Translations under genes and position numbers: made by a program
NCBI GenBank assembly: GCA_944384405.1
Contig: CALWTH010000015.1
Coordinates: 90 to 64,089, forward strand
Length of the DNA: 64,000 bases
Direction: 5' to 3'
Source of the DNA: an uncultured Clostridia bacterium
Lineage (GTDB): Bacteria; Bacillota; Clostridia; Christensenellales; UBA1242
Notes under the pieces: generated by a model
What the model was told of the DNA's origin: nothing
Database searches by the model: none
Seen by the model: only the letters and a program-made list of their open reading frames with translations
Shown: piece after piece, positions 8,393 to 39,976 of the stretch
Layout: each line of letters begins with the position of its first letter
Numbering within the stretch: the first letter of the stretch is position 1

Positions 8393-8400
8393 TTGAATAC

Positions 8401-8441
8401 AAAATACACCATTAATGGGAAACCTAAAAGGTGTATTTTTT
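8401..8441 (+). terminator. rho-independent terminator after metG
   Basis: AAAATACACC / GGTGTATTTT stem followed by a T-run. Confidence 0.55.
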
Positions 8442-8490
8442 ATACGTAAATTCATTGTAAGTTAATGTTGGTTGTGGTATTATTACATGT

Positions 8491-21353: not shown

Positions 21354-23771
21354 ATGCAAAATCCAGCATCGGATAGTTTGGAAAAAGTTATAAAAAACGC
21401 TGGCAAAGTGGCGTTAAAATATGGAAGTAACCAAGTTGGTACTGAGCATATTTTGTATGGGCTTTGCAGCGTAAAAGATTGCATGGCGTCTAAAATACTT
21501 AAAGAGTATGGAATAACAAGCGAAGGCTTGACTGAAATTTTTAACGACAATTCGCAGGGAGTTTTTGTAGGCGTTGATGTTGAACTCACACCACGAAGCA
21601 AAGAGATAATCAGCATGGCAAAACAAGTTGCAATGCAACTAGGACATAACTTTGTCGGACCTGAGCATCTTCTTTTTGCACTTTTGTCCAGTCCAAATTG
21701 TTTTGCAGTTAGACTAATAACTTCATATTTTCGTGCAAATTTGACGGAAATTAAGTCAAAACTTGTTGTGTTTTTGCAAGGTAGCAATGACCTTTCTTCT
21801 GACTTGCCACAAGATGCGCAAAGAAGTTCACTTCCTGAAAAATTGCTTGATATGGGCTATGATGTCACACTTAAAGCAAGACAGGGTAAAATTGACCCCA
21901 TAATTGGTAGGGAAACGGAAATTGAACGCATAATTGAAATACTATGCAGAAAGACCAAAAACAATCCTATTTTGATTGGTGAAGCAGGGGTTGGGAAAAC
22001 GGCTATTGTTGAAGGACTTGCACAGGCGATTGTCAGCGGTAATGTACCTGAGATATTAAAAGATAAGATAATATATTCTCTCGAAATTGGTGGACTTATG
22101 GCAGGCACTAAATATCGTGGCAGTATGGAAGAAAAGCTTAAAGACACCATTGAAACAATAATTGCAAGTAAAAACATCATTGTGTTTATTGACGAAATTC
22201 ACACACTTGCACAAGCAGGTAGTGAAAAAGGCGAAACAAGCCCAAAAGATATGCTAAAGCCATATCTTGCTCGTGGAGAACTTCAAACGATTGGAGCGAC
22301 AACAACAGATGAATATGCAAAATTTATTGAAAGTGACAAGGCACTAGAAAGAAGATTTCAACCAATCATGGTCAATCCACCAACTGTTGAACAGACCATT
22401 GAAATATTAAAGGGACTAAAAGATAGTTATGAGGCATTTCATAACGTCACAATAACCGATGAGGCGATTGAAGCGGCTGCCACACTCTCAGATAGATACA
22501 TTATGGACAGGAGTTTGCCAGATAAGGCAATTGACTTAATTGATGAGGCTAGCAGTAAAGCAAAAGTCAGTTTCAACTTAAAGCCAAGTGCAATAAGGGA
22601 AAAAGAAGAAAAAATCAAGCAACTATCTGCCAATAGAGATGAGGCAAGTATTCAACGCAACTACGAAAAGGCAGCAAAAATACAGACGCAAATTTTGGAA
22701 CTTGAAGACGAACTGAAAAAACTAAATGAGAATTTCAGCAGAACATCAAACTCAAATTCAAACTCAATAGGAGCAAATGAAATTGCAGAAGTTGTTTCAA
22801 AGTGGACAGGAATACCAGTTACCAAAATAACAGAAACAGAGCGTGAAAAACTTATAAATCTTGAAAACATTCTTCATAAACGCGTAGTTGGTCAAGATGA
22901 GGCAGTTAGCGCTGTTGCAAAAGCAATTCGTAGGTCAAGAGTTGGACTTCATGACAATAAACGACCAATAGGTTCATTCTTGTTCTTAGGTCCAACGGGA
23001 GTTGGAAAGACAGAACTGTGCAAAGCAATAGCAGAAGCTATGTTTGATGACGAAAATAACATAATAAGAATAGATATGAGTGAATACATGGAGCCACATA
23101 GTGTTTCAAAGCTCATAGGTGCTCCACCGGGATATGTTGGCTTCGATGAAGGCGGACAACTGACCGAACAGGTAAGACGAAGACCATATAGCGTTGTGCT
23201 TTTTGATGAAATTGAAAAGGCACATCCAGATATATTCAACTCACTTTTGCAAGTGCTTGACGATGGAAGATTGACCGATAGTCAAGGCAGAACAGTAAAT
23301 TTCAAAAATACAATCATAATAATGACAAGTAACATTGGCAGTGAAGAAATGAATGAAAGGCATCTTGGCTTCAATTCACAGAGCATCGAAGAAGAAGATG
23401 AAATTAAAGATATATACTATCAAGCACTAAGAAGAAAACTTAAACCAGAATTTTTGAATAGGATAGATGTCATATGTGTGTTTAAACCATTAAATGAAAA
23501 TGACCTAGTGAAAATTGCAACAATTATGATATCTAATATAAATAAGCGTTTAACAAGAAGTGGACTAGAACTAAAACTCACCAATAGGGCACTTGACTAC
23601 ATCGTCAGAAGTGGAACAAATCTTCAATATGGCGCAAGACCACTTAAAAGGTATATCCAGCAAGAAGTTGAAGACAGAATTGCAGAAAAGATACTTCTTG
23701 GACAAATTAGTTCCACAGGTAGCGTAATTATTGACTGCGTTGACGGCGAATTGACATTTAAAAGTCAGTGA
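21354..23771 (+). CDS. clpC: ATP-dependent Clp protease ATP-binding subunit ClpC
   Basis: 805 aa with Clp_N repeats, two Walker A loops (GEAGVGKTA, GPTGVGKTE) and a UVR-like middle segment. Confidence 0.9.
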   Translation: MQNPASDSLEKVIKNAGKVALKYGSNQVGTEHILYGLCSVKDCMASKILKEYGITSEGLTEIFNDNSQGVFVGVDVELTPRSKEIISMAKQVAMQLGHNFVGPEHLLFALLSSPNCFAVRLITSYFRANLTEIKSKLVVFLQGSNDLSSDLPQDAQRSSLPEKLLDMGYDVTLKARQGKIDPIIGRETEIERIIEILCRKTKNNPILIGEAGVGKTAIVEGLAQAIVSGNVPEILKDKIIYSLEIGGLMAGTKYRGSMEEKLKDTIETIIASKNIIVFIDEIHTLAQAGSEKGETSPKDMLKPYLARGELQTIGATTTDEYAKFIESDKALERRFQPIMVNPPTVEQTIEILKGLKDSYEAFHNVTITDEAIEAAATLSDRYIMDRSLPDKAIDLIDEASSKAKVSFNLKPSAIREKEEKIKQLSANRDEASIQRNYEKAAKIQTQILELEDELKKLNENFSRTSNSNSNSIGANEIAEVVSKWTGIPVTKITETEREKLINLENILHKRVVGQDEAVSAVAKAIRRSRVGLHDNKRPIGSFLFLGPTGVGKTELCKAIAEAMFDDENNIIRIDMSEYMEPHSVSKLIGAPPGYVGFDEGGQLTEQVRRRPYSVVLFDEIEKAHPDIFNSLLQVLDDGRLTDSQGRTVNFKNTIIIMTSNIGSEEMNERHLGFNSQSIEEEDEIKDIYYQALRRKLKPEFLNRIDVICVFKPLNENDLVKIATIMISNINKRLTRSGLELKLTNRALDYIVRSGTNLQYGARPLKRYIQQEVEDRIAEKILLGQISSTGSVIIDCVDGELTFKSQ

Positions 23772-24030: not shown

Positions 24031-27000
24031 ATGAAAAATTCCTTAAAATTAATTATCACGATTGCTATGTGTTGCATCTCAACTGCTTTGCTCGTCTTTG
24101 GTGTGTATAGTGCAAATCAAATTGATTATTCACTAACGGGCAATATTTTTTATGAGGTCAACTCTCTTTACACAGATGTGTCAACATCACTTTATGCGTT
24201 GACACAAACACAAGAACAAAGTGAGATTGATTCATATTTAAAAATGGTGGAACTGAAAGATAGTTTGGACAATAATCAATCCCTTCCTGATGATATTGTC
24301 AAATTGGACTATTCTAGTTTTTATTCAACAATGAACAATAACATAAGTGAAGAGGATACTCTGCTAGCTAGCGAAACATTTGGGGTCAGTTATGATGACT
24401 ATGATCCAGTTTTGGTGACGCCAACGGCATACACTTTTTATTTGGTGTTTGAAGTAAAAAACTATTCAAGCGAAACAATAAGTGCACTACTCGATTTTTC
24501 AAATATAACCAATAATACGACCAACACCACAGTAAATTCATTATTCACTAAGGCAAACATATACGGCAAAACAGGGGAAGAGGAATATGGAACATTTTAT
24601 TTTGTGTCGTCACTATCTTTTGATAAGCACTCTATATTAAAATCGTATAATTTTGATAACATAACATTTACAGTAAATACTGGGGAATTGGTGTCAACAC
24701 CATTGTCACAATTTACCTTCACCACAAGCAATGGTCAAGCAACATTGACGTCATATGTAGGCGATAGTACCGATGTGGTTATCCCATCTCACCTTGATGA
24801 CGGAACACCCGTCACAGAATTAGGTGGAAATGCGTTTAGAAACAAAACTATCCAAAATGTTTACATACCAGATACTATTAGTGTAATCAATGATGCTGCT
24901 TTTAGTGGTTGCACAAATTTATCTAATGTTGACATTCAAAGTAATTGTTTGACAAGCATAGGGTATTCAGTTTTTTCTGGTTGCAGTAGTTTACAAAGTA
25001 TAACAATACCAAACTCAGTGATAAGTATAGGAAGATATGCATTTAATAATTGCAGTAGTTTGCAAGGAGTGACATTGCCAAATAACGATAATTTTACAAC
25101 GATAGAAGGTGATATGTTTTATAATTGCAAGAATTTACAAAGTATCACAGTGCCAGGCTCGGTAACAAGTATAGGCAGTTATGCGTTTCGTGGTTGCAGT
25201 AGTCTGCAAGAGGTGACATTGCCAAATAACGATAACTTCACAACGATAGAAAGAGATACATTTAATGGTTGCAGTAGTTTACAAACCATCACAATACCAA
25301 AATCGGTAACAAGTATAGGATATTCTGCGTTTTCTGAATGTAGCAGCATAAAAAGAGTGCACTATTTGGGAACGGTCAACGATTGGCTTAATATAAGTTT
25401 TCATGATGGGACTTCAAACCCCATATGGTATGGTGCAAATTTGTATATAAATGGTACCTTATTTGAAGAGATCAAGGCAGAGGATTTCACTGATGGCAAA
25501 GAGGTCACAAAGATAAATGATTATGCATTTTCTGGTTGTGTCAGTTTAAAAAGTGTCACAATACCAAGTGGTGTGACAAGTATAGGAAGTTCTGCATTTT
25601 ATAGATGTAGTAGCATAAAAGATGTGTACTATTTGGGAACAGTCAATGACTGGCTTAACATAAGTTTTGGTGCTTCATCTTCAAATCCATTGAATAATGG
25701 AGCAAATTTGTATATAAATGGCACCTTATTACTTGAAGAAATAAAGGCAGAGGACTTTACTATTGGCAAAGAGGTAACAGCAATAAGCGATTATGCTTTT
25801 TATAATTGCAAAACTTTAAAAAGTGTCACAATACCAAGTGGTGTAACAAGTATAGGCAGTTATGCGTTTCGTGGTTGCAGAAGTTTACAAAGTATCACAG
25901 TGCCAGGCTCAGTAACAAGTATAGGAAGTTATGCGTTTTATGGTTGCAGTAGTTTACAAGAAGTGACGCTGCCAGATAACAATAACTTATCAACTATAGA
26001 AAATTATACATTTTATGGTTGTAATGGTTTAACAAGTATAACAATACCAGACTCAGTAACAAGTATAGGAAGTTATGCATTTGATGCTTGCAGTAATATA
26101 AAAGAAGTGTACTATTTGGGAACAGTCAATGACTGGTTTAACATAAGTTTTAGTGGTTCATCTTCAAATCCATTGAATAATGGAGCAAATTTGTATATAA
26201 ATGACACCTTACTTGAAGAGATTAGGGCAGAGGATTTTACTATTGGCAAAGAGGTAACAGCAATAAGCGAATATGCTTTTTATAATTGCAAAACTTTAAA
26301 AAGTGTTACAATACCAAGTGGTGTAACAAGTATAGGAAGTTATGCATTTAATGATTGCAGTAGTTTGCAAAGTATTATAGTGCCCGATACGGTAACAAGC
26401 ATAAGATATCAAGCGTTTACGGGTTGCAGTAATATAAAAGAAGTGTACTATTTGGGAACAGTCAATGACTGGCTTAACATAAGTTTTGGTGATTTATATT
26501 CAAATCCATTGAATAATGGAGCAAATTTGCATATAAATGATACCTTACTTGAAGAAATAAAGGCAGAGGACTTTACTGATGGTAATGAGGTCACAAAGAT
26601 AGGTTATGCATTTTATGGTTGTAATAGTTTAAAAACCATTACAATACCAGAAACGGTAACAAGTATAGGAAGTTCTGCATTTTATGGTTGCAGTAATTTA
26701 CAAGAAGTGACACTGCCAGATAACGATAAATTTACAACGATAGAAAGAAATACATTTGATGGTTGCAGTAGTTTACAAACCATCACAATCCCAGCAAATG
26801 TAACAAGTATAGGAAGTCAAGCATTTTATAATTGCAGTAGTTTACAAGAAGTGACACTGCCAGATAACGATAAATTTACAACGATAGAAAGTAATACATT
26901 TTATAATTGCTGTAGTTTATCTAGCATCACAATCCCAGCAAATGTAACAACTATAGGAAGTCAAGCATTTTGGGGTTGCAGTAATTTGTTTCTTGTTATT

Positions 27001-29007
27001 AATTTATCTACTAGTATAACAATTAGTTTGAAAAGCAGTTCAAACGGATATGTTGGATATTATGCCAAGAAAATAACAAATACTTTAAGTCAGGATAATT
27101 TTTATACTCAAGATGGAATACATTATTATGAAGATAATGAAATAAAGATTATATTAGGAATTGACATTGAGGGCTACACAATGACAATACCAGAGGGAAC
27201 AGTTGCAATAACTTCGGGACTTGTCCTTGGTTTACTTCCTGAGAGTGCTGGGAAAAACGTGATAGCAAAAGTTGTTATACCAAGTTCAGTAACAAGCATA
27301 GGGAGTTCGGCATTCAGTGGTTTTGGAAATTTAAAAGAAGTTTATTATTTGGGAACAGTCAACGACTGGCTCAATATAAGGTTTTCTAATGATACTTCGA
27401 ACCCAATGAGTTATGGTGCAAATTTGTATATAAATGATACCTTACTTGAAGAAATAAAGGCGAATGACTTTACTGATGGCAAAAATATAACTAGAATAAG
27501 CGACTATGCTTTTTATAATTGTAAAAGTTTACAAAGTATCACAATAGCGGATACTGTTGAGACCATAGGAAGTCGAGCATTTTCTGGTTGCAGTAGTTTA
27601 CAAAGTATCACAGTGCCGGGCTCGGTAACAAGTATAGGAAGTCTAGTGTTTTATGGTTGCAGTAGTATAACAGAAGTGCACTATCTTGGAACAGTCAACG
27701 ACTGGCTCAATATAAGTTTTTTTGATTCCTATGCAAATCCATTATATTTTGGTAATGCTATTTGGTATATGAACGATACATTACTTGAAGAAATAACTGT
27801 AGAGGATTTTACTAATGGTAAAGAGATAAATACGATAAGCGAATATGCATTTTATGGATGTGCCAGTTTAAAAAGCATCACAATCCCAGCAAATGTAACA
27901 AGTATAGGCAGTTCTGCGTTTGATGGTTGCAGTAATTTACAAGAAGTGACATTGCCAAATAACACTGATTTTACAACGATAGGAAGTAATACATTTTCTA
28001 ATTGCAGTAGTTTACAAACCATTACAATACCAGAAACGGTAACAAGTATAGGACGTTCTGCATTTTATAATTGCAGTAGTTTACAAAGTATTATAGTGCC
28101 AAAATCGGTAACAAGTATAGGACGTTCTGCATTTTATAATTGCAGTAGTTTACAAAGTATTATAGTGCCAAAATCGGTAACAAGTATAGGCAGTTCTGCG
28201 TTTAATGGTTGCAGTAGTTTACAAGAAGTGACATTGCCAGATAACGATAAATTTACAACTATAGAAAATCATACATTTTCTGAGTGCAGTGATTTGCAAA
28301 TCATAACAATACCAGGCTCGGTAACAAGTATAGGAGATTCAGCATTTTATAGTTGCTATGATTTGCAAACCATAACAATACCAGGCTCGGTAACAAGTAT
28401 AGGAAGTTATGCATTTTATAGTTGCAGTAGTATAAAAGAAGTGCGTTATTTGGGAACAGTCAACGACTGGCTCAATATAAGTTTTTCTATGAAAGAGTCA
28501 AATCCGATGCGCTTTACTGATAATGTGTACATAAATGATAGCCTGCTTGAAGAGATAACGGCAGAGGATTTTACGGATGGAACAAATAAAATAACAAAAA
28601 TAAACAATTATGCTTTTTATGGCTATTATAGTTTAAAAAAGGTCACAATACCGGACTTTGTGGAAAGTATCGGAAATCAAGCATTTTATAATTGCTATAA
28701 TTTACAAACCATCACAATACCAAACACTGTTGAAAACATAGGAAATTATGCATTTGATACTGATTATAGAGCTTCTTCAATTTACAGAATAATTGTTGAA
28801 AGCGAAACAGTTTTAAAAGGTTTGACGGGAACTGGAACAAGCACAATGGGTGCTTTACTTTCAACAGTGGAAGATAACTTGGATAGAATATACATTCCAG
28901 AATCTATTGAGGATTCTGTGCCTGATTATATTAAAAACAACTGGACAAAGTTTGACAAAACTGAAACAGTTAATGGAACGATATATGTTATTTATGGAAA
29001 AATATAG
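24031..29007 (+). CDS. giant BspA-type leucine-rich-repeat surface protein (1658 aa)
   Basis: N-terminal signal-anchor, then dozens of ~23-aa units of the form ITIPxSVTSIGxxAFxxCSSLQ (BspA/LRR_5 type), plus seven 58-aa YLGTVNDWLNISF modules. No LPXTG or other C-terminal anchor seen. AAGGAG RBS. Confidence 0.85.
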   Translation: MKNSLKLIITIAMCCISTALLVFGVYSANQIDYSLTGNIFYEVNSLYTDVSTSLYALTQTQEQSEIDSYLKMVELKDSLDNNQSLPDDIVKLDYSSFYSTMNNNISEEDTLLASETFGVSYDDYDPVLVTPTAYTFYLVFEVKNYSSETISALLDFSNITNNTTNTTVNSLFTKANIYGKTGEEEYGTFYFVSSLSFDKHSILKSYNFDNITFTVNTGELVSTPLSQFTFTTSNGQATLTSYVGDSTDVVIPSHLDDGTPVTELGGNAFRNKTIQNVYIPDTISVINDAAFSGCTNLSNVDIQSNCLTSIGYSVFSGCSSLQSITIPNSVISIGRYAFNNCSSLQGVTLPNNDNFTTIEGDMFYNCKNLQSITVPGSVTSIGSYAFRGCSSLQEVTLPNNDNFTTIERDTFNGCSSLQTITIPKSVTSIGYSAFSECSSIKRVHYLGTVNDWLNISFHDGTSNPIWYGANLYINGTLFEEIKAEDFTDGKEVTKINDYAFSGCVSLKSVTIPSGVTSIGSSAFYRCSSIKDVYYLGTVNDWLNISFGASSSNPLNNGANLYINGTLLLEEIKAEDFTIGKEVTAISDYAFYNCKTLKSVTIPSGVTSIGSYAFRGCRSLQSITVPGSVTSIGSYAFYGCSSLQEVTLPDNNNLSTIENYTFYGCNGLTSITIPDSVTSIGSYAFDACSNIKEVYYLGTVNDWFNISFSGSSSNPLNNGANLYINDTLLEEIRAEDFTIGKEVTAISEYAFYNCKTLKSVTIPSGVTSIGSYAFNDCSSLQSIIVPDTVTSIRYQAFTGCSNIKEVYYLGTVNDWLNISFGDLYSNPLNNGANLHINDTLLEEIKAEDFTDGNEVTKIGYAFYGCNSLKTITIPETVTSIGSSAFYGCSNLQEVTLPDNDKFTTIERNTFDGCSSLQTITIPANVTSIGSQAFYNCSSLQEVTLPDNDKFTTIESNTFYNCCSLSSITIPANVTTIGSQAFWGCSNLFLVINLSTSITISLKSSSNGYVGYYAKKITNTLSQDNFYTQDGIHYYEDNEIKIILGIDIEGYTMTIPEGTVAITSGLVLGLLPESAGKNVIAKVVIPSSVTSIGSSAFSGFGNLKEVYYLGTVNDWLNIRFSNDTSNPMSYGANLYINDTLLEEIKANDFTDGKNITRISDYAFYNCKSLQSITIADTVETIGSRAFSGCSSLQSITVPGSVTSIGSLVFYGCSSITEVHYLGTVNDWLNISFFDSYANPLYFGNAIWYMNDTLLEEITVEDFTNGKEINTISEYAFYGCASLKSITIPANVTSIGSSAFDGCSNLQEVTLPNNTDFTTIGSNTFSNCSSLQTITIPETVTSIGRSAFYNCSSLQSIIVPKSVTSIGRSAFYNCSSLQSIIVPKSVTSIGSSAFNGCSSLQEVTLPDNDKFTTIENHTFSECSDLQIITIPGSVTSIGDSAFYSCYDLQTITIPGSVTSIGSYAFYSCSSIKEVRYLGTVNDWLNISFSMKESNPMRFTDNVYINDSLLEEITAEDFTDGTNKITKINNYAFYGYYSLKKVTIPDFVESIGNQAFYNCYNLQTITIPNTVENIGNYAFDTDYRASSIYRIIVESETVLKGLTGTGTSTMGALLSTVEDNLDRIYIPESIEDSVPDYIKNNWTKFDKTETVNGTIYVIYGKI
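28037..28174 (+). repeat. perfect 69-bp tandem duplication inside the LRR gene
   Basis: 28037..28105 is identical to 28106..28174 (encoding SVTSIGRSAFYNCSSLQSIIVPK twice). The next 16 nt repeat again before diverging. Confidence 0.9.
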
Positions 29008-29043: not shown

Positions 29044-29952
29044 CTAAACATTTAAAAATTCGCGAAGAAGTGAATTTTTTGGGACAAGACTATTTGTCAT
29101 TGGCTCAAATTTTTTCAATTTTTGAACTAAATCTATGCAAGTAGATAAACTCTCTTTTTGAAGAAGTGGGGAAAGATAGTATGCGTATAATAATGGCTCA
29201 TACATATGAACACTATCAACAGAAAAATCTGCATCGTCTTTATATGGGTCAATATATTTTTTTTCGCCTTCAAGCACTTCATGCCAAGTACTTAGCGTTG
29301 TTTTAACATTCCTGCCACGCGTTAGACTGTCACGAAGAAGGCGTCTAAGTAGCCTTATTTCAGTACTAGACAAGACACATTTGTCATTTTCATAGAAATC
29401 TGACTGAGTGCAAATATAAATTTTATACACATATTCTGTATATCCGTTGATAAGAAGTGGATTAAGTGCATGCAAACCTTCAATAATCACTATTGTGTCG
29501 TCATCTATATCAATGTGGGTATAATTTTCTTCTCGCATACCAGTCAAAAAATTATACTTTGGCATATCAGCTTCAGTGGTGGATAGAAGAGCATGCAAAA
29601 AACTATGAAAATATTCAATATCAAGTGCAGTGACATTTTCATAATCATAATTGCCGTTTGGAAGAAGTGGTGTGTTTTCTCTATTTAAAAAGAAGTCATC
29701 AAGTGAAACATATATACTTGTTTTGTGTTTCTCGGTGAGTCTATCTGCCAAAATTTTGCTAGTGGTTGTTTTTCCAGAAGATGATGGACCCGCTAAAAGC
29801 ACAATTTTGACTTTTTTTTCTAATATTTCATCAACAATATCGTCAATTTGATTGTGAAACATATTTTCTGACATATCAACTAAAAGTTGTTCATCAGTGT
29901 TTTTTAAATTGTTCAATTCATCGACATAGTAAATATTTTTATTCGCCTGCAT
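29044..29952 (-). CDS. uridine kinase-family P-loop nucleoside kinase
   Basis: Walker A GPSSSGKTTT, then DDFF, PKYNF, IIEGLHALNP and RLLRDSLTRGR, matching the Udk/PRK fold pattern. AAGGAG RBS. Confidence 0.65.
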   Translation of the reverse strand: MQANKNIYYVDELNNLKNTDEQLLVDMSENMFHNQIDDIVDEILEKKVKIVLLAGPSSSGKTTTSKILADRLTEKHKTSIYVSLDDFFLNRENTPLLPNGNYDYENVTALDIEYFHSFLHALLSTTEADMPKYNFLTGMREENYTHIDIDDDTIVIIEGLHALNPLLINGYTEYVYKIYICTQSDFYENDKCVLSSTEIRLLRRLLRDSLTRGRNVKTTLSTWHEVLEGEKKYIDPYKDDADFSVDSVHMYEPLLYAYYLSPLLQKESLSTCIDLVQKLKKFEPMTNSLVPKNSLLREFLNV

Positions 29953-30120
29953 TATATCTCCTTAAGGTTGCCATAAAAGAATAACATATTTTTGCTTATT
30001 TTTGAAATATTTTAACTAAAAATTTTAAATTTATCATAATTTAATTGTTTTTGACTTTTTTTGCTTATTGGGGACATTTGGATTTTATTTGAACTATATT
30101 ATATACGAAAAGAGGTATTT

Positions 30121-31539
30121 ATGAAGCTAAAAGATTTATTAAAAGACATAAAAGTAAAAAACGATATTTCAAAAATACAAGACATGGAAATTACAAATCT
30201 TAGCACACACGCACAAGATGATTTAACTGGTTGTTTATTCTTTTGTTACAGTGGTTCACATGATGCTTTTAGCGTGGCACAAAAAGCGCAAGAAAATGGA
30301 GCACTTGCAATTGTTTGTGACAGACTTTATGATGTGAATGTTGCAAAAATTTTAGTCGATGATGTCCGTCAGGTTATGGCGACGATGGCACAAACTTTTT
30401 ATGATACAAAAGATGTAAAGGTGATAGGCATAACAGGTACAAACGGCAAGACAACAACTAGTTTCATAATCAAAAACATCTTATCAAGTGCTGGCAAAAA
30501 AGTGGGGCTTATTGGTACAAATGGCATATATTACAAAGATAATTTTTTGCCCGCAAAACTCACTACGCCTGATGTTTTAGACTTGCATCAAATTTTTTCA
30601 ATAATGAAAAAAGGCGGTGTTGATTATATTGTTATGGAAGTGTCGGCGCACGCAATAGCATTGAAAAAAGTTTCGGGTGTGGATTTTGTTTGCAAAATTT
30701 TAACAAATGTATCACAAGACCATCTTGACTATTTCAAAACGCTTGAAGAATACAAAAAAGTCAAACAAAGTTTTTTTGACAATCCACAGGACCTTATGGT
30801 AATAAACGCCGACGATGAAGTTGGTCAAATCATACTCGCAAAATACGATAGTGCAATTTCATATGGCATAAATTGTCCAAGTGATAGTTTTTGTATTGAT
30901 ATAAATGGTGATGCAACGCAGTATGTGATGAACATATGTGACAATGTAATAAAAATAAAGTCGCATCTATATGGGCTTTTTAATGTTTATAACTGTCTTG
31001 CTGCGGCAACATGTTGCTATTTTCTTGGAATAAGCATTGACCAGATTCAAAGTGCGTTATGTAATGTTTGTGAAGTGGAGGGGAGATTTAACGTAATTAA
31101 ACACAATGACAAGACAATAATAATAGATTTTGCGCACACACCAGACGGACTTGAAAACGTGCTTAAAACGGCAAAAAGAATGTGCAAAAATAAACTCATT
31201 TGCGTGTTTGGGTGTGGAGGAGACAGAGATAAATCGAAGCGTAGACTTATGGGCGCAGTTGCTGAAAAGTACTGTGATTATTGTTTCATCACAAGCGATA
31301 ACCCACGCTTTGAAAAGCCAGAAAGCATCATTGAAGACATACAAAAGGGCTTTAATGGAAAAAATTATTATGTGGCAGTTGATAGAAAAATTGCTATTTC
31401 ACTTGCAATAAAATATTTAAAAGATGGCGATGTTCTTATAATTTGTGGAAAAGGTGGGGAAAATTATATTGACATAAAAGGTGAGAAATTGCCATATAGT
31501 GATTTTGAAACTGTTAAAGAGATATTGAAAGGTCAATGA
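30121..31539 (+). CDS. murE: UDP-MurNAc-L-Ala-D-Glu:meso-diaminopimelate ligase
   Basis: GITGTNGKTTT. The DNPR motif (SDNPRFE) is typical of DAP-adding MurE. Start at MKLKDLL after AGAGG. Confidence 0.85.
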   Translation: MKLKDLLKDIKVKNDISKIQDMEITNLSTHAQDDLTGCLFFCYSGSHDAFSVAQKAQENGALAIVCDRLYDVNVAKILVDDVRQVMATMAQTFYDTKDVKVIGITGTNGKTTTSFIIKNILSSAGKKVGLIGTNGIYYKDNFLPAKLTTPDVLDLHQIFSIMKKGGVDYIVMEVSAHAIALKKVSGVDFVCKILTNVSQDHLDYFKTLEEYKKVKQSFFDNPQDLMVINADDEVGQIILAKYDSAISYGINCPSDSFCIDINGDATQYVMNICDNVIKIKSHLYGLFNVYNCLAAATCCYFLGISIDQIQSALCNVCEVEGRFNVIKHNDKTIIIDFAHTPDGLENVLKTAKRMCKNKLICVFGCGGDRDKSKRRLMGAVAEKYCDYCFITSDNPRFEKPESIIEDIQKGFNGKNYYVAVDRKIAISLAIKYLKDGDVLIICGKGGENYIDIKGEKLPYSDFETVKEILKGQ

Positions 31540-32537: not shown

Positions 32538-33835
32538 ACATATTAACAAAAAATTTTTTAGTTTATGGAACAGGGAAAAGTGGTAAAAGTGCAGTTTTAT
32601 TTTTGTTATCTCGTGGAGCAAAAAATGTTTACACTTTTGACGACGATAATAACAGTGAAAGCGTAAAAAATACAACAAAACTAAATAGTTTAGATGATAT
32701 AGAAAATTATGATATTGAGTGTGCAATATTGAGTCCCGGTGTTAATGTTCTTGGCAACCCAAACATTGATTTACTTTCAAAAAAGGGCATTAAATTTATT
32801 AGCGAGTTTTATCTTGGCTTTATGTTTTCATACGGCAAAAAGATATGTATAACAGGAACAAATGGAAAGACAACAACAGTGAACTTAATATATGAGATGC
32901 TCAGACAAAAATATAAAGATGTTTTTCTTTGTGGCAACACCGATACACCAATAACAAAAATAGCAAATCTCACTTCTTTAAATAGCATTTTGGTTTGCGA
33001 AGTTAGTAGTTTTGCACTTGAAACATGTGAAGAAATTAAGCCTGATGTTAGTGCAATATTAAACATAGGCGTGGACCACATTGCTAGGCATGGTACATTT
33101 GAAAATTATAGTCAAATAAAGAAGAAGATAACGGCATATCAAGACGCAAAAGACTATTTTGTTTGCAGTGAAAATTTTGACATTGTGACAAACGCCAATG
33201 TTGTTTTGTATTCTTTAAATCAGCATTCTTGTGGTGCATATGCTTCAAAAGGATATGTCTGCTTTAATGGCCATAAGATAATAAAAAGAAAAGACATAAA
33301 ACTTTTAGGTGATAAAAACTTAGAAAATGTGCTTTGTGCAGTTTCAATAGCAAAACTTTTTAAGGTTAGAAATGGAAAGATAAAAAAGGTTTTAAAAAAC
33401 TTTAAGGGGTTAAAGCACAGAATTCAAGTTGTTTTGAAAAAAAATAATATTACATACATAGATGATAGCAAGGCGACCAATCCTGACAGCACAATTTGTG
33501 CACTGGATAGCATACATGATGAAACAATTCTTCTTTTGGGTGGAAGTGATAAGGGCTATGATTATGACGAAATTTTTGAACATACACAACACACAAAAAC
33601 TATTTTGACTTTTGGACAGATGGGCGAAAAAATAAAGCAAACTGCACAAAAAAGTGGTTTCAATGATGTTTTGTCTTTCAAAAAGATGAGTGATGCCACA
33701 CTTTACGCAATAAGTATTGCACGCTCTGGCGATGTTGTTCTTTTGTCGCCTGCGTGTGCTAGTTATGATGAATTTAGTTCATATGCAGAAAGAGGTGATA
33801 GCTTTGCGAAAATTGTTGCAGAAAATGAAGATTAA
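32534..33835 (+). CDS. murD: UDP-MurNAc-L-alanine:D-glutamate ligase
   Basis: ITGTNGKTTT with a Rossmann-like N-terminus (VYGTGKSGKS). GTG start overlaps the mraY stop (GTGTGA). Confidence 0.85.
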   Translation: MNILTKNFLVYGTGKSGKSAVLFLLSRGAKNVYTFDDDNNSESVKNTTKLNSLDDIENYDIECAILSPGVNVLGNPNIDLLSKKGIKFISEFYLGFMFSYGKKICITGTNGKTTTVNLIYEMLRQKYKDVFLCGNTDTPITKIANLTSLNSILVCEVSSFALETCEEIKPDVSAILNIGVDHIARHGTFENYSQIKKKITAYQDAKDYFVCSENFDIVTNANVVLYSLNQHSCGAYASKGYVCFNGHKIIKRKDIKLLGDKNLENVLCAVSIAKLFKVRNGKIKKVLKNFKGLKHRIQVVLKKNNITYIDDSKATNPDSTICALDSIHDETILLLGGSDKGYDYDEIFEHTQHTKTILTFGQMGEKIKQTAQKSGFNDVLSFKKMSDATLYAISIARSGDVVLLSPACASYDEFSSYAERGDSFAKIVAENED

Positions 33836-34925
33836 GTTTGACAAAACAACTGTCCTTGTGGTTTTGTGCACACTTGCGCTTTGCACGTTTGGGTGCATAA
33901 TGGTTTATAGTGCAAGTTTTTATTCAGCGCAAAAAAATTATGATAACTCGACTTTTTTTCTTGTGAAGCAAATTATAGGTGTTTTGCTTGGCTTTTGTGG
34001 CATGATATTTTTCACATTTTTTGATTACAAAAAGCTTCAAAAATTTAAATGGATTGCTGTTATAGTCGCAACTGTTTTTCTTATTCTTGTATTTATTCCA
34101 GGAATTGGAATATCAAATTATGGTGCAAAAAGATGGATAGGATTTGCAGGATTTTCTTTTCAGCCTAGTGAAATAGCAAAGTTTGCACTTGTGCTTTTTT
34201 GTGCTTGCCATTTTTCAAAACACAAAGATGATGCAAAAAAATTCAAAACAATTATTCCGCCTTTGGCAGTTGGTGGACTATTTTGTCTACTTGTTATATT
34301 AGAGCCAAATATGAGTATAACTATGTGTCTTGGAATAGTGATGCTTGCAATGTTGTTCTTTGGTGGAACGAAATTCAAGTATTTTATTTACATAGGAATA
34401 CCAGCACTTTGTCTTGTACCTGTACTTATCATAATTGAGCCCTATAGACTTTTAAGACTAATGGCTTTTTTGGACCCTTGGGCTTCGCCACAAGGTGAGG
34501 GATTTCAGCTTATTCAGTCACTTTATTCACTTGGCAATGGTGGACTGTTTGGCGTAGGGCTATTTTCTTCAAGACAAAAATATCTTTATTTGCCTTTTGC
34601 AGAAAGTGATTTCATTTTCTCAATCATATGCGAAGAATGTGGATTTTTTGGAGCAACAATGCTCATTTTAGCATTCGCACTTTTGTGCTATTTGCTTGTA
34701 AAAATTGCACTAAACGCAAAAGATAGGTTTGCAAGTTTACTTGTCGTGGGTATTGCGTGCGTGATATGTACTCAAGTTGTTTTGAATATTGCAGTTGTCA
34801 CAGGCTCAATCCCGCCAACAGGACTTCCACTTCCATTTATAAGTGCAGGAAGTACTTCTCTTATGGTGTTTATGTCTGCAATAGGGGTTTGTTTAAATGT
34901 TGCAAGGCAGAGTAAAAAACAATAA
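33825..34925 (+). CDS. ftsW: SEDS-family peptidoglycan polymerase FtsW
   Basis: Polytopic, with SEDS motifs (GAKRWI, QPSE, LPLPFISAGSTS). Start at MKIKFDK overlaps the murD end by 11 nt. Confidence 0.85.
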   Translation: MKIKFDKTTVLVVLCTLALCTFGCIMVYSASFYSAQKNYDNSTFFLVKQIIGVLLGFCGMIFFTFFDYKKLQKFKWIAVIVATVFLILVFIPGIGISNYGAKRWIGFAGFSFQPSEIAKFALVLFCACHFSKHKDDAKKFKTIIPPLAVGGLFCLLVILEPNMSITMCLGIVMLAMLFFGGTKFKYFIYIGIPALCLVPVLIIIEPYRLLRLMAFLDPWASPQGEGFQLIQSLYSLGNGGLFGVGLFSSRQKYLYLPFAESDFIFSIICEECGFFGATMLILAFALLCYLLVKIALNAKDRFASLLVVGIACVICTQVVLNIAVVTGSIPPTGLPLPFISAGSTSLMVFMSAIGVCLNVARQSKKQ

Positions 34926-35015
34926 CAAAAAAAAGATAAATTTTAAAAAATATAATAAAACAACACAAAAATTAAATATCAACTTTAATATCAAAATAGG
35001 TCTTAAATTTTAACA

Positions 35016-35044
35016 TTGACGTTTATTATAATTTGAGTTAAAAT
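35016..35044 (+). promoter_or_regulatory. promoter of the inserted LRR cassette
   Basis: TTGACG (35016..35021), 17 nt, TAAAAT (35039..35044). Confidence 0.5.
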
Positions 35045-35061
35045 ATAGCAGAGGCAAAAGT

Positions 35062-37290
35062 ATGATAGTTGAAAATGGAATATTGCTTAAAGTTGATGAA
35101 AAGGATATTGAACTCCTAAACAAAAATCCCAAAAAATTTTGGGAAGGTATATATCACATTGGTGACGGAGCTTTTCAAGATTGTACAAGTTTAAAAAACA
35201 TAGAGATACCAAATAGTGTAACAAGTATAGGTAAAGAAGCTTTTCAAGATTGTTCAAATTTAGAGAATATAGTTATACCAAACAGTGTAACAGCTATTGG
35301 AGATTTTGCGTTTTCTTATTGTACAAATTTAAAAAAAATAGAGATACCAAATAGTGTAAAAAGTATTGGAAATTCTGCTTTTGCGAGTTGTACAAGTTTA
35401 AATGATATAGAGATACCCAATAGTGTAACAGCTATTGGAGATTCTGCGTTTTTTAATTGTACAAGTTTAAAAGAAATAGATATACCAAATAGTGTGACAG
35501 CTATTGGAAATTCTGCGTTTGTTAATTGTACAAGTTTAAAAGAAATAAATATACCAAATAGTGTGACAGCTATTGGAGATTCTGTGTTTGAAAATTGTAG
35601 CAATTTAAAAGAAATAGATATACCAAATAGTGTGACGGCTATTGGAAATTCTGCGTTTGTTAATTGTACAAGTTTAAAAGAAATAAATATACCAAATAGT
35701 GTGACAGCTATTGGGGATTCTGCGTTTGAAAATTGTATAAACACAAGAAATATAGAGATACCAAATAGTGTAACAAGTATTGGTGACAGAGCTTTTCAAT
35801 ATTGTACAAGTTTAGGAAATATAGAGATACCAAATAGTGTAACAAGTATTGGAAAATCTGCCTTTTATGGAGTAAGGAATGTACAAATTCAAGATAAACA
35901 TATAATAGGAGATATATTAAGCACCGGAATATTTGAACTTATTAAAAATAATCCAAACATTAATTTAAAACAACTAACAAAAATATATTCAATCGCCAAA
36001 AATAAGGGCATCAATGTTGATAATACAAATGACTTTTTAGCATTATGCTATAATATTGGCATGCTTGAAAATAGGTCTTCAACGCTTACTATCAATAAAA
36101 ATGGCAAGACAAACAATGTCCCTATATGTGATTTGGCATATACTTTTATTCAAGGTTTAATTAATCATAATGAATTGGCTCTTAATGACTTGCATATGAA
36201 TTTGCAAGATTTAAAATTCAATAAATTTAATATAAATTTTGCAAGGTTTGTTGTGAACAAAAATAATTGGTCAGATATAAAAGAAAATTTACATTTATTA
36301 TCACGTATTTATGCATGGTTTGATTCAAGGGCAAATTTGGATTTAGAAAATAATGAATATTCGCTTTTGCCAACAACTGAAGAAAATAGATATAAAATTT
36401 TGGTATACGAAACTGCAGAAAATGGGATAGATAGAATGCATTGGAGAAATCCCACTGTTGAGCTTTTATTAAAAGAATTTGCCAATAATAAATTTGTTGG
36501 AATAAATACCCCAAGAGAAAAAGAAATAGCAGAGTATTTAACACAGTATAACATTTACACGCAGAAACATTTTGAAAAAGCAAAAGAAATCGATGAAGAA
36601 AGAAGGAATAGTGGAGTTCAAGATATTTTACGTAAACCTATTTCACAAGATAGAATTTCAAGTCTAGACGAATATAGAGAAAAAACTAAACAAATGAGAG
36701 AAAAAATTTTAAGTGATGCTTCGGAAGTTCTTTCAAAACAAATTGAAGATACATCTTCAATTTTCACTTATGAAGTTTTGTCTAAAGATTCTGTTGAAAA
36801 CTTTGCTATGGGATGTATGACGAGTTGTTGTGCAACATTATATGGTGCAGGAGCGGGAGCAATGAGAGCAATGATAAATCACCCTGATATTCAACCATTT
36901 GTCATAAGAGATTTTGATAACAAGATAATATCTTTTGGTATCATATATGTAAATAGGGAACAGGGATATGCAGTTGTGAATGATTTTGAAGTAAATAAAA
37001 AGTATATGGATAGAGATGAACAGAGAAAGGCAATTTATGATAAAGCAATGGAAGGTATACGCGCTTTTGTAAAAGAGTATAATTTAGAAAATCCGGAAAA
37101 GCCCATAAGAAAAGTGACAAGTGGCATCTCTCCAAACTGGACTGCAATTAATGATTATATACGTCAAAATCCAAAAAGTGAAATCTTAAAAGCACCAAAT
37201 TTTAATGATTTTAAATATGCAGGTAGTGGGTTATGGCCAGGAGATTGGCATAGAGAACAATACAAGATATTTGACATGGGGGGAAAATGA
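35062..37290 (+). CDS. signal-less BspA-type LRR protein with a ~470-aa uncharacterised C-terminal domain
   Basis: About 11 units of IEIPNSVTAIGxSAFxNCTSLKEI follow an N-terminus with no hydrophobic leader. The C-terminal domain contains GCMTSCCATLYGAGAGAMRAM; no family recognised. Confidence 0.7.
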   Translation: MIVENGILLKVDEKDIELLNKNPKKFWEGIYHIGDGAFQDCTSLKNIEIPNSVTSIGKEAFQDCSNLENIVIPNSVTAIGDFAFSYCTNLKKIEIPNSVKSIGNSAFASCTSLNDIEIPNSVTAIGDSAFFNCTSLKEIDIPNSVTAIGNSAFVNCTSLKEINIPNSVTAIGDSVFENCSNLKEIDIPNSVTAIGNSAFVNCTSLKEINIPNSVTAIGDSAFENCINTRNIEIPNSVTSIGDRAFQYCTSLGNIEIPNSVTSIGKSAFYGVRNVQIQDKHIIGDILSTGIFELIKNNPNINLKQLTKIYSIAKNKGINVDNTNDFLALCYNIGMLENRSSTLTINKNGKTNNVPICDLAYTFIQGLINHNELALNDLHMNLQDLKFNKFNINFARFVVNKNNWSDIKENLHLLSRIYAWFDSRANLDLENNEYSLLPTTEENRYKILVYETAENGIDRMHWRNPTVELLLKEFANNKFVGINTPREKEIAEYLTQYNIYTQKHFEKAKEIDEERRNSGVQDILRKPISQDRISSLDEYREKTKQMREKILSDASEVLSKQIEDTSSIFTYEVLSKDSVENFAMGCMTSCCATLYGAGAGAMRAMINHPDIQPFVIRDFDNKIISFGIIYVNREQGYAVVNDFEVNKKYMDRDEQRKAIYDKAMEGIRAFVKEYNLENPEKPIRKVTSGISPNWTAINDYIRQNPKSEILKAPNFNDFKYAGSGLWPGDWHREQYKIFDMGGK
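35466..35741 (+). repeat. near-perfect 138-bp tandem duplication (two LRR units each)
   Basis: 35466..35603 versus 35604..35741; I counted about 3 mismatches. Confidence 0.85.
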
Positions 37291-37532
37291 GTATGAAAAA
37301 TAAAATTGATATTTGGATAAAAGTAGATGCGTTGTTACAAAAGCGATTAAAGGAACTTGAAGCATTGGATTCTCAAAGGGAAGAGATAATACAAAAAGCA
37401 GAAAAAATGGGTACTCTTACTGAAGAGCTAAAGCAAGAAATGGAAGAGAATTTAGCAAAGTATAATAATTTGGCAAAAAATGTAGAAGACTTGAAAAATA
37501 GAGTACAAAAGATGAAGAACAATAAAGGTTAA
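37287..37532 (+). CDS. small coiled-coil protein, translationally coupled to the LRR gene
   Basis: 81 aa, Glu/Lys/Leu-rich heptad-like sequence. ATGA overlap with the upstream stop; GGGGGGA RBS. Confidence 0.45.
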   Translation: MSMKNKIDIWIKVDALLQKRLKELEALDSQREEIIQKAEKMGTLTEELKQEMEENLAKYNNLAKNVEDLKNRVQKMKNNKG

Positions 37533-37536
37533 TAAG

Positions 37537-37669
37537 TTTGTCTTTGCATTGGCCTTTTTGATGATGCCACTACTTTACAACCACCATTCATCGGTCAGAA
37601 AGCACATCGCTTATGGTTTTTATGTTTGCAATAGGGGTTTCATTAATGTTCTCAGAAAAAGTAAAATAG
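37537..37669 (+). pseudogene. degenerate duplicate of the ftsW 3' end
   Basis: 37610..37640 matches 34860..34890 at 29 of 31 nt. It translates (with a frameshift) to LQPPFIG...STSLMVFMFAIGVSLMFSEKVK, compared with the FtsW C-terminus LPLPFISAGSTSLMVFMSAIGVCLNVARQSKKQ. Confidence 0.7.
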
Positions 37670-37707: not shown

Positions 37708-38388
37708 ATGATAAAAGAAAGCAAATATGCAATTTTTGAATATGAAGAACAAGATGAAAATATTATAAATGATTTAATAGATTGGTTAGATAAGAATGCT
37801 ATTATGATTTTTAATTTTTTTGATATAACATTAAACAATAATAAAGTAAAAATTCAAATCTTAAAAAACAAACATGAATTTGACAAGGATTATATAATAA
37901 GTAATAAATTACAAAAAGATTATACTGTTCCTGATTGGTGTATTGGATTTTCAAACAATAATCAAATAAAAATTGTCTCTTTTAATGACTATGTCAATAT
38001 TCCAAGCCATAAAAATGATACTTTTGAGTTATACAAAAAAACAATCTTACATGAGTATGTGCACTATGTAAATTTCTTATTTAATCAATCAAAAAATTGT
38101 GATGACACAGAAAAATATTTAGTCGAGGGTATCGCTTGCTTTTTAAGTAAACAATACGATGGACAAAAGTTAGAATTAAATAGTTCTATAGAAAATATAT
38201 TGAATGAAAATTTCGCATCTTATAGTAGTTATTACCTTCTTACGAAATATTTAGTTGAAAATTATGACAAAAATTTCGTTTTGAAACTTTTTAAAAATAA
38301 AAAACAAGCAAGAGAATTTTTAGTAACTGAATTATACAACAAGGTTAAAGAACAATATGCAATTAATCAGTTTTATAAAATTATATAA
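37708..38388 (+). CDS. putative gluzincin metallopeptidase (peptidase-MA-like)
   Basis: HEYVH (HExxH), followed 24 residues after its second His by EGIACF (the EGxAxY-type third ligand). No signal peptide. Confidence 0.4.
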   Translation: MIKESKYAIFEYEEQDENIINDLIDWLDKNAIMIFNFFDITLNNNKVKIQILKNKHEFDKDYIISNKLQKDYTVPDWCIGFSNNNQIKIVSFNDYVNIPSHKNDTFELYKKTILHEYVHYVNFLFNQSKNCDDTEKYLVEGIACFLSKQYDGQKLELNSSIENILNENFASYSSYYLLTKYLVENYDKNFVLKLFKNKKQAREFLVTELYNKVKEQYAINQFYKII

Positions 38389-38453: not shown

Positions 38454-38482
38454 TTGACAAATAATATTAAATTACATATACT
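38454..38482 (+). promoter_or_regulatory. orphan consensus promoter
   Basis: TTGACA (38454..38459), 17 nt, TATACT (38477..38482). No ORF follows. Confidence 0.5.
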
Positions 38483-38486
38483 AATT

Positions 38487-38551
38487 AAAATTCAACCAAG
38501 CCCAAAAGGCGAGTACTTGTGGTAACACAGCACGGGGGTTGAATTTTTTTT
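38487..38551 (+). ncRNA. candidate small structured RNA or murA leader
   Basis: AAAATTCAACC (38487..38497) pairs with GGTTGAATTTT (38537..38547), enclosing two short hairpins (GCC-CAAAA-GGC; TTGTG-GTAA-CACAG), followed by a T-run. No known family recognised. Confidence 0.3.
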
Positions 38552-38716
38552 ATTTAACCATATTGTATTTAATTAAAAAATAAATGTATAAGTTACAGAT
38601 TTAGAAATAATTCATATGACTATAGTTATGATGAAGTTTTAAAAGGTAATTTCACAAAAAATATACTGATGACACAGGAAAAAGAGTTTTGGCATAAGTT
38701 AATGTGGAGAATTATA

Positions 38717-39976
38717 ATGGAAAGTTTTTTTATTTGTGGAGGCAATAAACTTGAAGGAGAACTTAGTATTAATACATCAAAAAATGCCGTTTTGCCAATT
38801 TTAGCAGGCTGTATTTTATGCGATAAAGATATAATATTACATAAATTTCCTAAATATGAAGACACACTTACAATGTTAAATATTTTGGAAGACCTTGGCG
38901 CAAAGACATTTATTTACGACGATTGCGTAAAAATTCAATGTGAGAGTATTTCAAAAAGTGAAATTCCTGTTAGTTTGGCGTCAAAAATAAGGTCATCAAT
39001 ATTTAGTCTTGGAGCAATACTTTCTCGTTTCAAAAAGGCAAAAGTACCATACCCAGGTGGTTGTGCTATTGGTGCAAGACCAATAGATTTACATATTAAA
39101 GGATTAAAGCAACTAGGTGCAAAAATAGTTGATAAACACGGATATCTTTATTGTGACGGAACTAATATGAAAAGTGGGGTTGTGAGCATTGACTTCCCGT
39201 CAGTTGGAGCGACAGAAAACATAATGCTTGCATCTGTGTTTTTAAAAGGGACAACAAAGATAATAAACTGCGCAAGAGAACCGGAAATTGTTGACCTCGC
39301 GAACTTTTTAAATAGTCTTGGTGCAAAAATAAGTGGTGCAGGAAATAGCATAATAGAAATAGAAGGTGTGACAAAACTTGAAGGCGGAGAATACACTCCA
39401 ATAACTGACAGAATAACGACAGGTACATATGTTTTAGCAACGATAATGTGCGGAGGAGATGTTACATTTAGTGGTGTGAACTGCGAACATATTTCGTCAC
39501 TCATACATAATCTTAAAAATAATTGTTGCAAGTTAGACATAAAAGGTGATAAACTAAGGGTGATTGCAAACAAAAGACCAAAAGCTATTTCAAAAATTGA
39601 AACTCAGCCATATCCGGGCTTTCCAACAGACCTTCAACCACAAATAATGGCAATGCTAAGTGTGGCACGTGGTACTTCTGTTGTTGTTGAAAATTTGTTT
39701 GAATCTAGATTTAAACACGTTAGTGAACTTAAAAAACTTGGTGCTGACATTTTAGTAAATGACAAAACTGCAATAATAAAGGGCAAAAGTATGCTTTATG
39801 GTGCAAATGTCGTATGCCAAGATTTGCGTGGTGGTGCTGGCTTGGTGCTTGCGGGACTTGTTGCAAAAGGTTACACAACTGTCGATGATGTTTTTCATAT
39901 TGATAGGGGATACTATCATATGGAAAAAGATTTACAAAAGTTAGGAGCAAACATTGAAAGGATTACTAAAGCATAA
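38717..39976 (+). CDS. murA: UDP-N-acetylglucosamine 1-carboxyvinyltransferase
   Basis: Starts MESFFICGGNKLEGEL. Active-site Cys present (YPGGCAIGARPIDLH). GTGGAGA RBS. Confidence 0.9.
   Translation: MESFFICGGNKLEGELSINTSKNAVLPILAGCILCDKDIILHKFPKYEDTLTMLNILEDLGAKTFIYDDCVKIQCESISKSEIPVSLASKIRSSIFSLGAILSRFKKAKVPYPGGCAIGARPIDLHIKGLKQLGAKIVDKHGYLYCDGTNMKSGVVSIDFPSVGATENIMLASVFLKGTTKIINCAREPEIVDLANFLNSLGAKISGAGNSIIEIEGVTKLEGGEYTPITDRITTGTYVLATIMCGGDVTFSGVNCEHISSLIHNLKNNCCKLDIKGDKLRVIANKRPKAISKIETQPYPGFPTDLQPQIMAMLSVARGTSVVVENLFESRFKHVSELKKLGADILVNDKTAIIKGKSMLYGANVVCQDLRGGAGLVLAGLVAKGYTTVDDVFHIDRGYYHMEKDLQKLGANIERITKA

Follow-up and report, generated by a model that had tools for sequence, protein, structure and literature searches.

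Here, we describe a recurrent insertion site for small gene cassettes between ftsW and murA, first seen in a stretch of 64,000 nucleotides (hereafter the window; contig CALWTH010000015.1, assembly GCA_944384405.1) from an uncultured chicken-gut bacterium whose clade consists of uncultured gut Clostridia with relatives labelled Christensenella-like. The site is an integrase-less cassette hotspot marked by repeats of the ftsW tail, that is, of the last ~100–135 nt of the gene. The division and cell-wall cluster is usually held to be among the most stable stretches of the chromosome, whereas here the ftsW–murA gap is a recurrent entry point for accessory genes, and the insertions preserve an essential gene by duplicating its end. 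The cargo includes rRNA-methyltransferase-like and ABC-F genes, and members of both families can confer antibiotic resistance. As to how the cassettes arrive, we favour recombination within the ftsW tail itself, by which tail-bearing DNA would cross into the resident tail and leave its cargo behind it, and we put the probability of this reading at about 0.65.

Duplication of the ftsW tail in the window

The genes of the cluster stand in the order murE (30061–31539), mraY, murD, ftsW, a 3.7-kb interval, murA, ftsQ, ftsA and ftsZ. From ftsW onwards, the interval consists of a promoter-bearing spacer, a gene of the leucine-rich repeat (LRR) family LRR_5, an overlapping gene for an 81-aa protein, a relic of the ftsW tail, a gene for a 226-aa protein and a 46-nt scar of an ABC-F ATPase gene (Table 1). 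By blastn within the 64-kb window, positions 34833–34917 of the intact tail align to 37584–37666 with 77.6% identity over 85 nt (E = 1.3e-10), and a 31-nt core (34860–34890 versus 37610–37640) is identical at 29 of its 31 positions, a count that a preliminary description of this DNA had given and that was reproduced here. Smith-Waterman alignment of tail and relic gave z = 19.6 against 100 shuffles, while a profile hidden Markov model built from 24 ftsW tails matched 37580–37668 (E = 1.8e-12) as its sole extra match in the window. Six independent assemblies of this species, drawn from metagenomes of chicken gut and other sources, share the arrangement of tail and relic, and an assembly artefact is therefore excluded.

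The preliminary description had taken the repeat to be ~130 nt long (37537–37669), degenerate and frameshifted. Its degenerate character is confirmed, since the relic is broken by 1-nt insertions or deletions, is unable to encode the tail and reads ...STSLMVFMFAIGVS(L)NVLRKSKI. The supposed length was borne out for ~90–100 nt (from ~37566 or 37584 to 37668), whereas 37537–37565 has no significant similarity to ftsW. In trials of a 5' extension of the relic (37533–37566), positions 37537–37565 gave p ~0.45 against ftsW and p ~0.14 against the promoter spacer, and a MAFFT pairing of the relic's 5' part with the promoter is probably a chance result.

The remnant's similarity to FtsW tails, checked with the profile model just described, is thus significant, and its closest matches are the ftsW tails of its own clade (78–81%). 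A particular donor clade was also considered and rejected, the relic being roughly equidistant (76–81%) from the own-clade tails. The amino acids encoded by the intact tail are identical to those of the two sister species, L001 and L002, which are 96% identical to each other and both 92% identical to the window; they are 91–93% identical to those of L003–L008 and L010.

Empty and occupied sites in relatives

To place the window among its relatives, one genome per species was scanned, which returned 30 loci with a related ftsW (numbered here with an L); L041 and L042 are metagenome loci, and a scan of JGI metagenomes yielded four loci, one of them useful (L042). Alignment of the ftsW–murA interval, run as a check on the preliminary description, revealed empty sites in at least 12 relatives with 48–90% FtsW identity: murA begins ~0–335 nt after ftsW in L003–L006, L010, L013, L015–L019, L023 and L041. 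Adjacency of ftsW and murA is therefore the ground state, and the window is an occupied site. Of the two refuting conditions that the preliminary description had set, relatives without an empty site and a remnant without similarity to FtsW, neither applies, and its interpretation is supported.

Other occupied sites hold different cargo. Between ftsW and murA, L001 carries the 226-aa gene, an M20 peptidase and an ABC-F protein; L008 and L042 each carry an RlmA-type methyltransferase; L009 carries a secreted LRR protein; L020 has ORFs (open reading frames) of 349 and 370 aa, the latter resembling aspartate-ammonia ligase AsnA by eye only; L014 and L029 encode unknown proteins; and L021 encodes RidA, an NT5C nucleotidase, a rhomboid protein and a histidine phosphatase. 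When each locus was searched with its own tail, further copies appeared only in the window (z = 19.6), L001 (10.9), L042 (54) and L021 (30).

No integrase, excisionase or relaxase was found at the nine occupied sites, the window included; this search used Pfam on the proteins of the window interval, L001, L008, L014, L021 and L042, and inspection of ORF translations for L009, L020 and L029. The Pfam scans of the interval and of these scanned sites contained no transposase, and recombinase families were lacking among the window ORFs of at least 150 aa with Pfam matches. The assertion that no integrase remains at the locus thus holds for the interval, for the occupied sites and for these window ORFs.

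Across the clade (P0092–P0211, L001–L042), the residues of FtsW that lie beyond ...LNVxxQS are highly variable in both length and sequence, a pattern that fits frequent replacement of the extreme 3' end. An insertion coincides with a longer FtsW ending in L008, L009, L014, L020 and L042, although the correlation is imperfect.

Fresh tail copies in two relatives

The kind of event that the window would preserve in decayed form can be read directly in L042. Here, the first tail is followed by the RlmA-type methyltransferase gene, a 71-aa gene, a second copy of the tail, which matches the first at 97% over a 92-nt core, and then murA. The conspecific locus L007 is 99.3% identical to L042 over 3075 nt up to position 9074 of L042, inside the ftsW tail, and beyond this point the two are unrelated. 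In L007, ftsW has a canonical end (NVARQSKTKI) and is followed by another gene. In L042, the first tail combines a chromosomal left part with a novel end (NRKSKINQFTL), while the second combines a foreign, diverged left arm bearing a 9-nt insertion with a canonical, L007-like end (ARQSK). Single-nucleotide polymorphisms partition reciprocally between the two copies, with the switch inside CTTATGGTGTTTATGAG, a segment that falls within the best-preserved core of the window relic. Such a pair of copies is expected when an incoming molecule with a tail of its own undergoes one reciprocal crossover with the chromosomal tail, and the canonical old end has been displaced. The displacement put forward in the preliminary description, by which the old gene end gives way to one brought in from outside, is hence seen directly in L042 versus L007, while the window no longer reveals which of its tails came in.

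A second relative, L021, has a functional tail and three further copies, each starting 127–135 nt before the stop, and the four tails separate three small cassettes (RidA with NT5C, rhomboid, and histidine phosphatase). Behind every one of these tails stands the ftsW terminator hairpin, conserved through compensatory changes, and a promoter-like stretch comes after the hairpin for the first three of the four. The copies are mutually mosaic: copy 4 agrees with copy 2 in the left arm (25/27, 93%) and with copy 3 in the right half (82%), and copy 2 bears the SSGGTSVMVFM signature of a different subclade. The fourth copy (L021 12119–12274) additionally contains a 30-nt insertion in the central segment where the L042 crossover is placed; this insertion may be a recombination scar.

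The histidine-phosphatase cargo of L021 has a homologue in L050 (1023–1562, with 7934–8562 also noted) at 91% protein and 83% nucleotide identity, the latter over the ORF only. As the L050 contig also encodes Bro-N, a MobL relaxase and a phage-type integrase, cassette cargo is shared with mobilisable elements. L050 was nonetheless rejected as a tail-bearing donor, because its homology to the L021 cargo ends at the ORF limits and no tail copy is found there. An unrelated array of small genes, L053, was likewise set aside, as it has no inter-gene repeats.

Cargo of the window cassette

Between the two tail copies, the preliminary description had listed a promoter, an LRR gene lacking a signal sequence and a coupled small gene, and all three were recovered. 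The promoter-like element, TTGACG-17-TAAAAT, agrees with the consensus at 10 of 12 positions, and promoter-like sites are not enriched in this AT-rich region. The spacer that contains it is also found in L002. Its window and L001 versions are 92% identical, against ~80% at neutral third-codon sites, and the spacer is therefore under constraint.

The LRR gene encodes a 742-aa protein with N-terminal BspA-type LRR_5 repeats and a conserved C-terminal region of ~470 aa; it has no signal peptide and is described as cytoplasmic. Repeat number varies between strains of the same species (window, L035 and L036), giving proteins of 575 and 742 aa that are otherwise ~99.7–100% identical. Homologues form 91 clusters, and most of the full-length ones have the same LRR_5 N-terminus. 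In an AlphaFold model, residues 266–742 reach a predicted local distance difference test score (pLDDT) of 86, and Foldseek aligned the C-terminal region to GCN5/PCAF and other GNATs (E ~1e-4, probability 1.0), albeit with target-normalised template-modelling scores of ~0.4–0.58 and root-mean-square deviations of 6–9 Å. The protein has no Pfam GNAT match. An invariant motif of the family, YGAGAGAMR, resembles in our reading the acetyl-CoA loop of GNATs (Q/R-x-x-G-x-G/A). The C-terminal region is predicted from the model to end in a GNAT-like acetyltransferase fold.

The small gene trails the LRR gene in a start-stop overlap, and its product has sub-threshold Pfam matches only. In each of the three further genomic contexts that were examined, the LRR gene likewise has a gene for 79–81 aa behind it, and the LRR_5/GNAT-like C-terminal protein with its 79–81-aa partner is thus a conserved two-gene module (window 35860–37532; L031, L034, L046). 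Elsewhere in gut bacteria, the module occupies the rpsU–rpsO gap (L031, L046) or a position after pepF (L034), and at L031 it has a promoter-like site and a terminator of its own. The possibility that the tail duplication is a property of the module was discarded, as no such duplication exists at L031 and L034; a search for flanks shared across the contexts found only promoter consensus elements in common. By analogy, the layout of a GNAT with a small partner is reminiscent of acetyltransferase toxin pairs, from which it differs in gene order.

Age and decay in the window lineage

Comparison with sister lineages places the insertion in the past. L001 retains ftsW, the spacer, the relic and the 226-aa gene, and is missing the segment that corresponds to window ~35050–37565. 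The L002 contig ends exactly at the LRR start, with the LRR ribosome-binding site kept, and a 92%-identical metagenome contig has an LRR gene with a 1183-nt internal deletion, which takes away most of the 81-aa gene too. In light of these two sequences, L001 is best understood as having lost its LRR genes secondarily, by deletion. Most simply, the common ancestor already had both cassette and relic, and erosion has followed in the sister lineages.

In a comparison of the window with L001, the identity of the relic is 80.2%, the same as that of third-codon positions in ftsW and murA (80–81%), and the relic therefore evolves neutrally. Its identity to the intact tail of the same genome is 79.5%, from which it may be roughly estimated that the duplication is somewhat older than the split between the window species and L001. 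Among the assembled contigs of public runs, no alternative junction was found for the window species. The window insertion is old, fixed and immobile, and is not an active mobile element; in practical terms, the outcome for the window is a clean annotation, namely an old, fixed insertion with a neutral relic.

Mechanism and alternative readings

We propose that DNA carrying a copy of the last ~100–135 nt of ftsW undergoes one reciprocal crossover inside the chromosomal tail. Such an event would leave ftsW intact, with a gene end derived partly or wholly from the incoming DNA, would place the cargo behind it, and would push the other recombinant tail copy downstream, ahead of the former ftsW neighbour. 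The incoming DNA may be circular, in which case the integration would be of the Campbell type; tail-bearing circles could arise by excision between two tail copies in a donor, and the crossover would be catalysed by host RecA or by a recombinase encoded elsewhere. In the window, a single event is envisaged before the split from the two sister species, with the LRR/GNAT-like pair or a predecessor as its cargo, after which the displaced tail would have decayed neutrally to about 80% identity. The cassette would now be a fixed part of the chromosome, with transcription predicted from the conserved spacer promoter. A single reciprocal crossover is shown for L042; L021 and the window are consistent with it.

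Several observations weigh against this account. No circular form, donor element or recombinase was found; two pattern scans for tail fragments in IMG/VR returned none. No tail copy was detected by own-tail search at five other occupied sites (L008, L009, L014, L020 and L029), which implies either loss of the copies, by decay or deletion, or a second route of insertion. Nor is there a tail copy behind the 226-aa gene or the ABC-F scar, which are later or earlier additions not bracketed by tails. In the window, the two tails are too diverged to tell which copy came in, and ftsW identity to relatives does not break; a foreign origin of the intact tail was specifically rejected, as sliding ftsW identity against eight relatives had no break at the tail. 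Tail and relic are only ~140 nt apart in L001, with no LRR genes between them, and the LRR module stands at rpsU–rpsO and after pepF without duplication of the upstream gene's end, both of which raise the possibility that the LRR pair is not the duplicating cargo.

Two alternatives deserve discussion. According to the first, which we consider unlikely, the ftsW tail serves as attachment site for a recombinase whose gene lies elsewhere in the genome or on a helper element, and the cassettes are integrase-less passengers, comparable to cis-mobilisable elements or integron cassettes, that are captured, excised and reshuffled. Tail copies begin alike, 127–135 nt before the stop, in two distant lineages (FtsW ~57%), and the crossovers suggested by the sequences lie within the same short central segment; however, this segment is also the longest protein-constrained identical run (MVFM), where homologous recombination of diverged copies would cross too. 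L021 is array-like, with single-ORF cassettes in one orientation, each with a tail copy, a hairpin with T-run and a promoter-like stretch; two of its ORFs touch or run into the left arm of the tail copy that follows, and copies 2 and 4 share a left arm unlike that of the resident gene. Against these points, no recombinase gene occurs in or beside any occupied site or among the scanned window ORFs, and the tail copies lack an attC-like hairpin (single-strand folding of six copies, top strand only, z –1.25 to +0.55 versus shuffles). Moreover, searches of phage, plasmid and viral contigs turned up no isolated tail fragment, the tblastn matches that were checked or annotated being full-length FtsW genes in bacterial or misfiled contigs. 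On the strongest version of this alternative, the last ~130 nt of ftsW would be the recombination site of a natural cassette-capture system, in which small promoter-bearing cassettes that end in a tail and have no integrase come in, pile up, are reshuffled and are lost again behind an essential gene, the window being a fossil and L021 an active case; we hold this version to be doubtful.

The second alternative separates the duplication from the LRR cassette: an earlier cargo, since lost, would have produced the tail and relic, and the LRR module would have been inserted later between promoter and relic. The structure of L001 (tail, 125-nt spacer, relic, with a break just past the promoter at ~window 35049/35050) agrees with such a sequence of events, as does the occurrence of the module elsewhere without a tail duplication; in addition, the window segment that differs from L001 starts at the ribosome-binding site and so has no promoter of its own. 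Yet L002, which is nearer to L001 than to the window, and the 92%-identical metagenome contig both keep LRR sequence at the site, and the absence in L001 requires a single deletion, whereas this alternative requires two gains or a gain followed by a loss. A cassette of 125 nt would also be an unlikely integration product, and overall we judge the explanation improbable.

It is very improbable that the relic is left over from a second SEDS paralogue that has decayed, or from a tandem duplication of ftsW in place. SEDS paralogues (rodA, spoVE) are common in Firmicutes, and only the 3' end of the relic survives, its origin being not directly readable. Its nearest matches, however, are the own-clade ftsW tails, nothing SEDS-like precedes it, the fresh copies of L021 and L042 are truncated near the same point with cargo between them and foreign or mosaic arms, and none of ~25 sampled ftsW–murA loci holds a full-length second SEDS gene. 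Recombination within the ftsW tail remains our preferred reading.

Other features of the interval and the window

The remaining features of the interval are collected in Table 1. For ftsW, public assembly calls give a length of 366 aa (L040), and the mechanical ORF start lies at 33717.

Table 1. Positions of ftsW, murA and the features between them in the window.
Feature	Position	Strand	Remarks
ftsW, SEDS family	33825..34925	+	Pfam FTSW_RODA_SPOVE, E = 1e-98
Intact ftsW tail, proximal copy	34833..34925	+	Aligns to 37584–37666; strongest core 34860–34890
AT-rich 136-nt spacer, left end of cassette	34926..35061	+	Promoter-like TTGACG-17-TAAAAT at 35016–35044
742-aa LRR_5 gene	35062..37290	+	Pfam LRR_5, E = 1.3e-94
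Gene for 81-aa coiled-coil-like protein	37287..37532	+	Start overlaps LRR stop (ATGA); translationally coupled
Decayed, frameshifted ftsW 3'-end relic, distal copy	37566..37669	+	Solid part 37584–37668; nhmmer E = 1.8e-12, z = 19.6
226-aa HExxH gene	37708..38388	+	Weak Peptidase_MA_2 match below curated cut-off; GC 22–24%
ABC-F ATPase gene scar, 46 nt	38596..38641	+	87% nucleotide identity to L001 5628–5673, inside 553-aa ABC-F gene
murA	38669..39976	+	Pfam EPSP_synthase, E = 2.9e-81; directly 3' of ftsW in empty-site relatives (synteny)

The 226-aa gene stands apart as an accessory gene of its own; in L001 it is present but broken into two ORFs (149 and 62 aa), and the empty-site relatives L003–L006 and L010 lack it. 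The ABC-F scar encodes NNSYDYSYDEVL in the window, compared with NNSYDDSYDQVL in L001, where the gene is intact between the 226-aa gene and murA; it is what a deletion left behind, and shows that the window lineage formerly had more cargo here. Between the 226-aa gene and the scar, upstream of murA, positions 38454–38552 comprise a near-consensus promoter (TTGACA-17-TATACT, 11/12) followed by a ~60-nt Y-shaped stem-loop with a T-run (minimum free energy –19.7 kcal/mol, z = –2.6). The hairpin has no blastn match in L001, and no Rfam family matches anywhere in the interval, the hairpin included; the element may be a small RNA or a leader or attenuator of murA. PADLOC returned no defence-system match.

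Elsewhere in the window, a gene for a 1658-aa BspA-type LRR_5 protein (24031–29007) lies between clpC (21354–23771) and a uridine-kinase-like gene (29044–29952, minus strand). The gap between these two flanking genes is 610 nt in L003 and 80 nt in L004, and the gene is therefore a second large LRR insertion, ~10 kb upstream of the first. Pfam also identifies a McsB-like kinase and ClpC among the query proteins. A Fic/DOC-family protein (4288–5205) and a fusion of a GNAT acetyltransferase with an ADP-ribosylglycohydrolase (17019–18329) are both unrelated to the ftsW finding.

Comparison with known systems

Genomic islands, integrative mobilisable elements and cis-mobilisable elements (CIMEs) are known to occupy the 3' ends of conserved genes, as in ICESt1 and ICESt3 at fda, SGI1 at trmE and SCC at rlmH. 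The ftsW insertions resemble them in having a direct repeat of which one copy is the 3' end of the target (in the window, L021 and L042), in leaving the target gene intact with empty sites in relatives, in tandem accretion with repeat copies (L021), and in decay to immobile remnants. They differ in their target, which is ftsW in the cell-wall and division cluster; in their size, with units of 0.8–2.6 kb and one or two cargo genes; in their lack of integrase, excisionase and relaxase, although CIMEs may have lost their integrase; and in their repeat, which is long (~100–135 nt) and diverged rather than a short exact core. In a full-text search of a literature library, no publication came up in which ftsW is the target of integration. 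The insertions are also unlike transposons and insertion sequences: there is no transposase here, the duplication spans ~100–135 nt and the copies have foreign arms.

Campbell-type (insertion-duplication) integration, in which a circle bearing a piece of the chromosome enters by homologous recombination, predicts reciprocal chimeric copies that flank the insert, which is the pattern of L042 versus L007; its integrants are viable only when the end of the essential gene lies within the shared segment. Such integration is familiar chiefly as a laboratory technique and from plasmids and phages, whereas here it would be a natural and recurrent route. A further parallel is offered by rhs and cdiA toxin genes, in which a new 3' end enters by recombination at a short conserved stretch, while the former end persists downstream as a silent orphan stub. 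The ftsW locus likewise swaps its 3' end and leaves the old one downstream, but in the toxin genes the swapped end is itself the payload (toxin tip and immunity gene), whereas at ftsW the exchanged part is the conserved tail of a membrane protein, and the unrelated DNA behind it forms the payload.

Integrons provide the last comparison. L021 resembles an integron in its single-ORF array with one orientation, in its repeats of ~140 nt, in its place behind a fixed conserved gene and in its miscellaneous cargo. It differs in having no intI and no attI, the genes upstream being murE, mraY, murD and ftsW with no tyrosine recombinase; furthermore, the repeat is derived from coding sequence, and the cassettes seem to carry a promoter-like stretch of their own. 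The insertion itself is of a familiar kind, that of islands at gene 3' ends, from which the ftsW target and the integrase-less cassettes set it apart. If the tail repeat does drive exchange without a dedicated integrase, uncultured gut bacteria would have, in the ftsW–murA gap, a simple analogue of integron-like gene capture that relies on homology.

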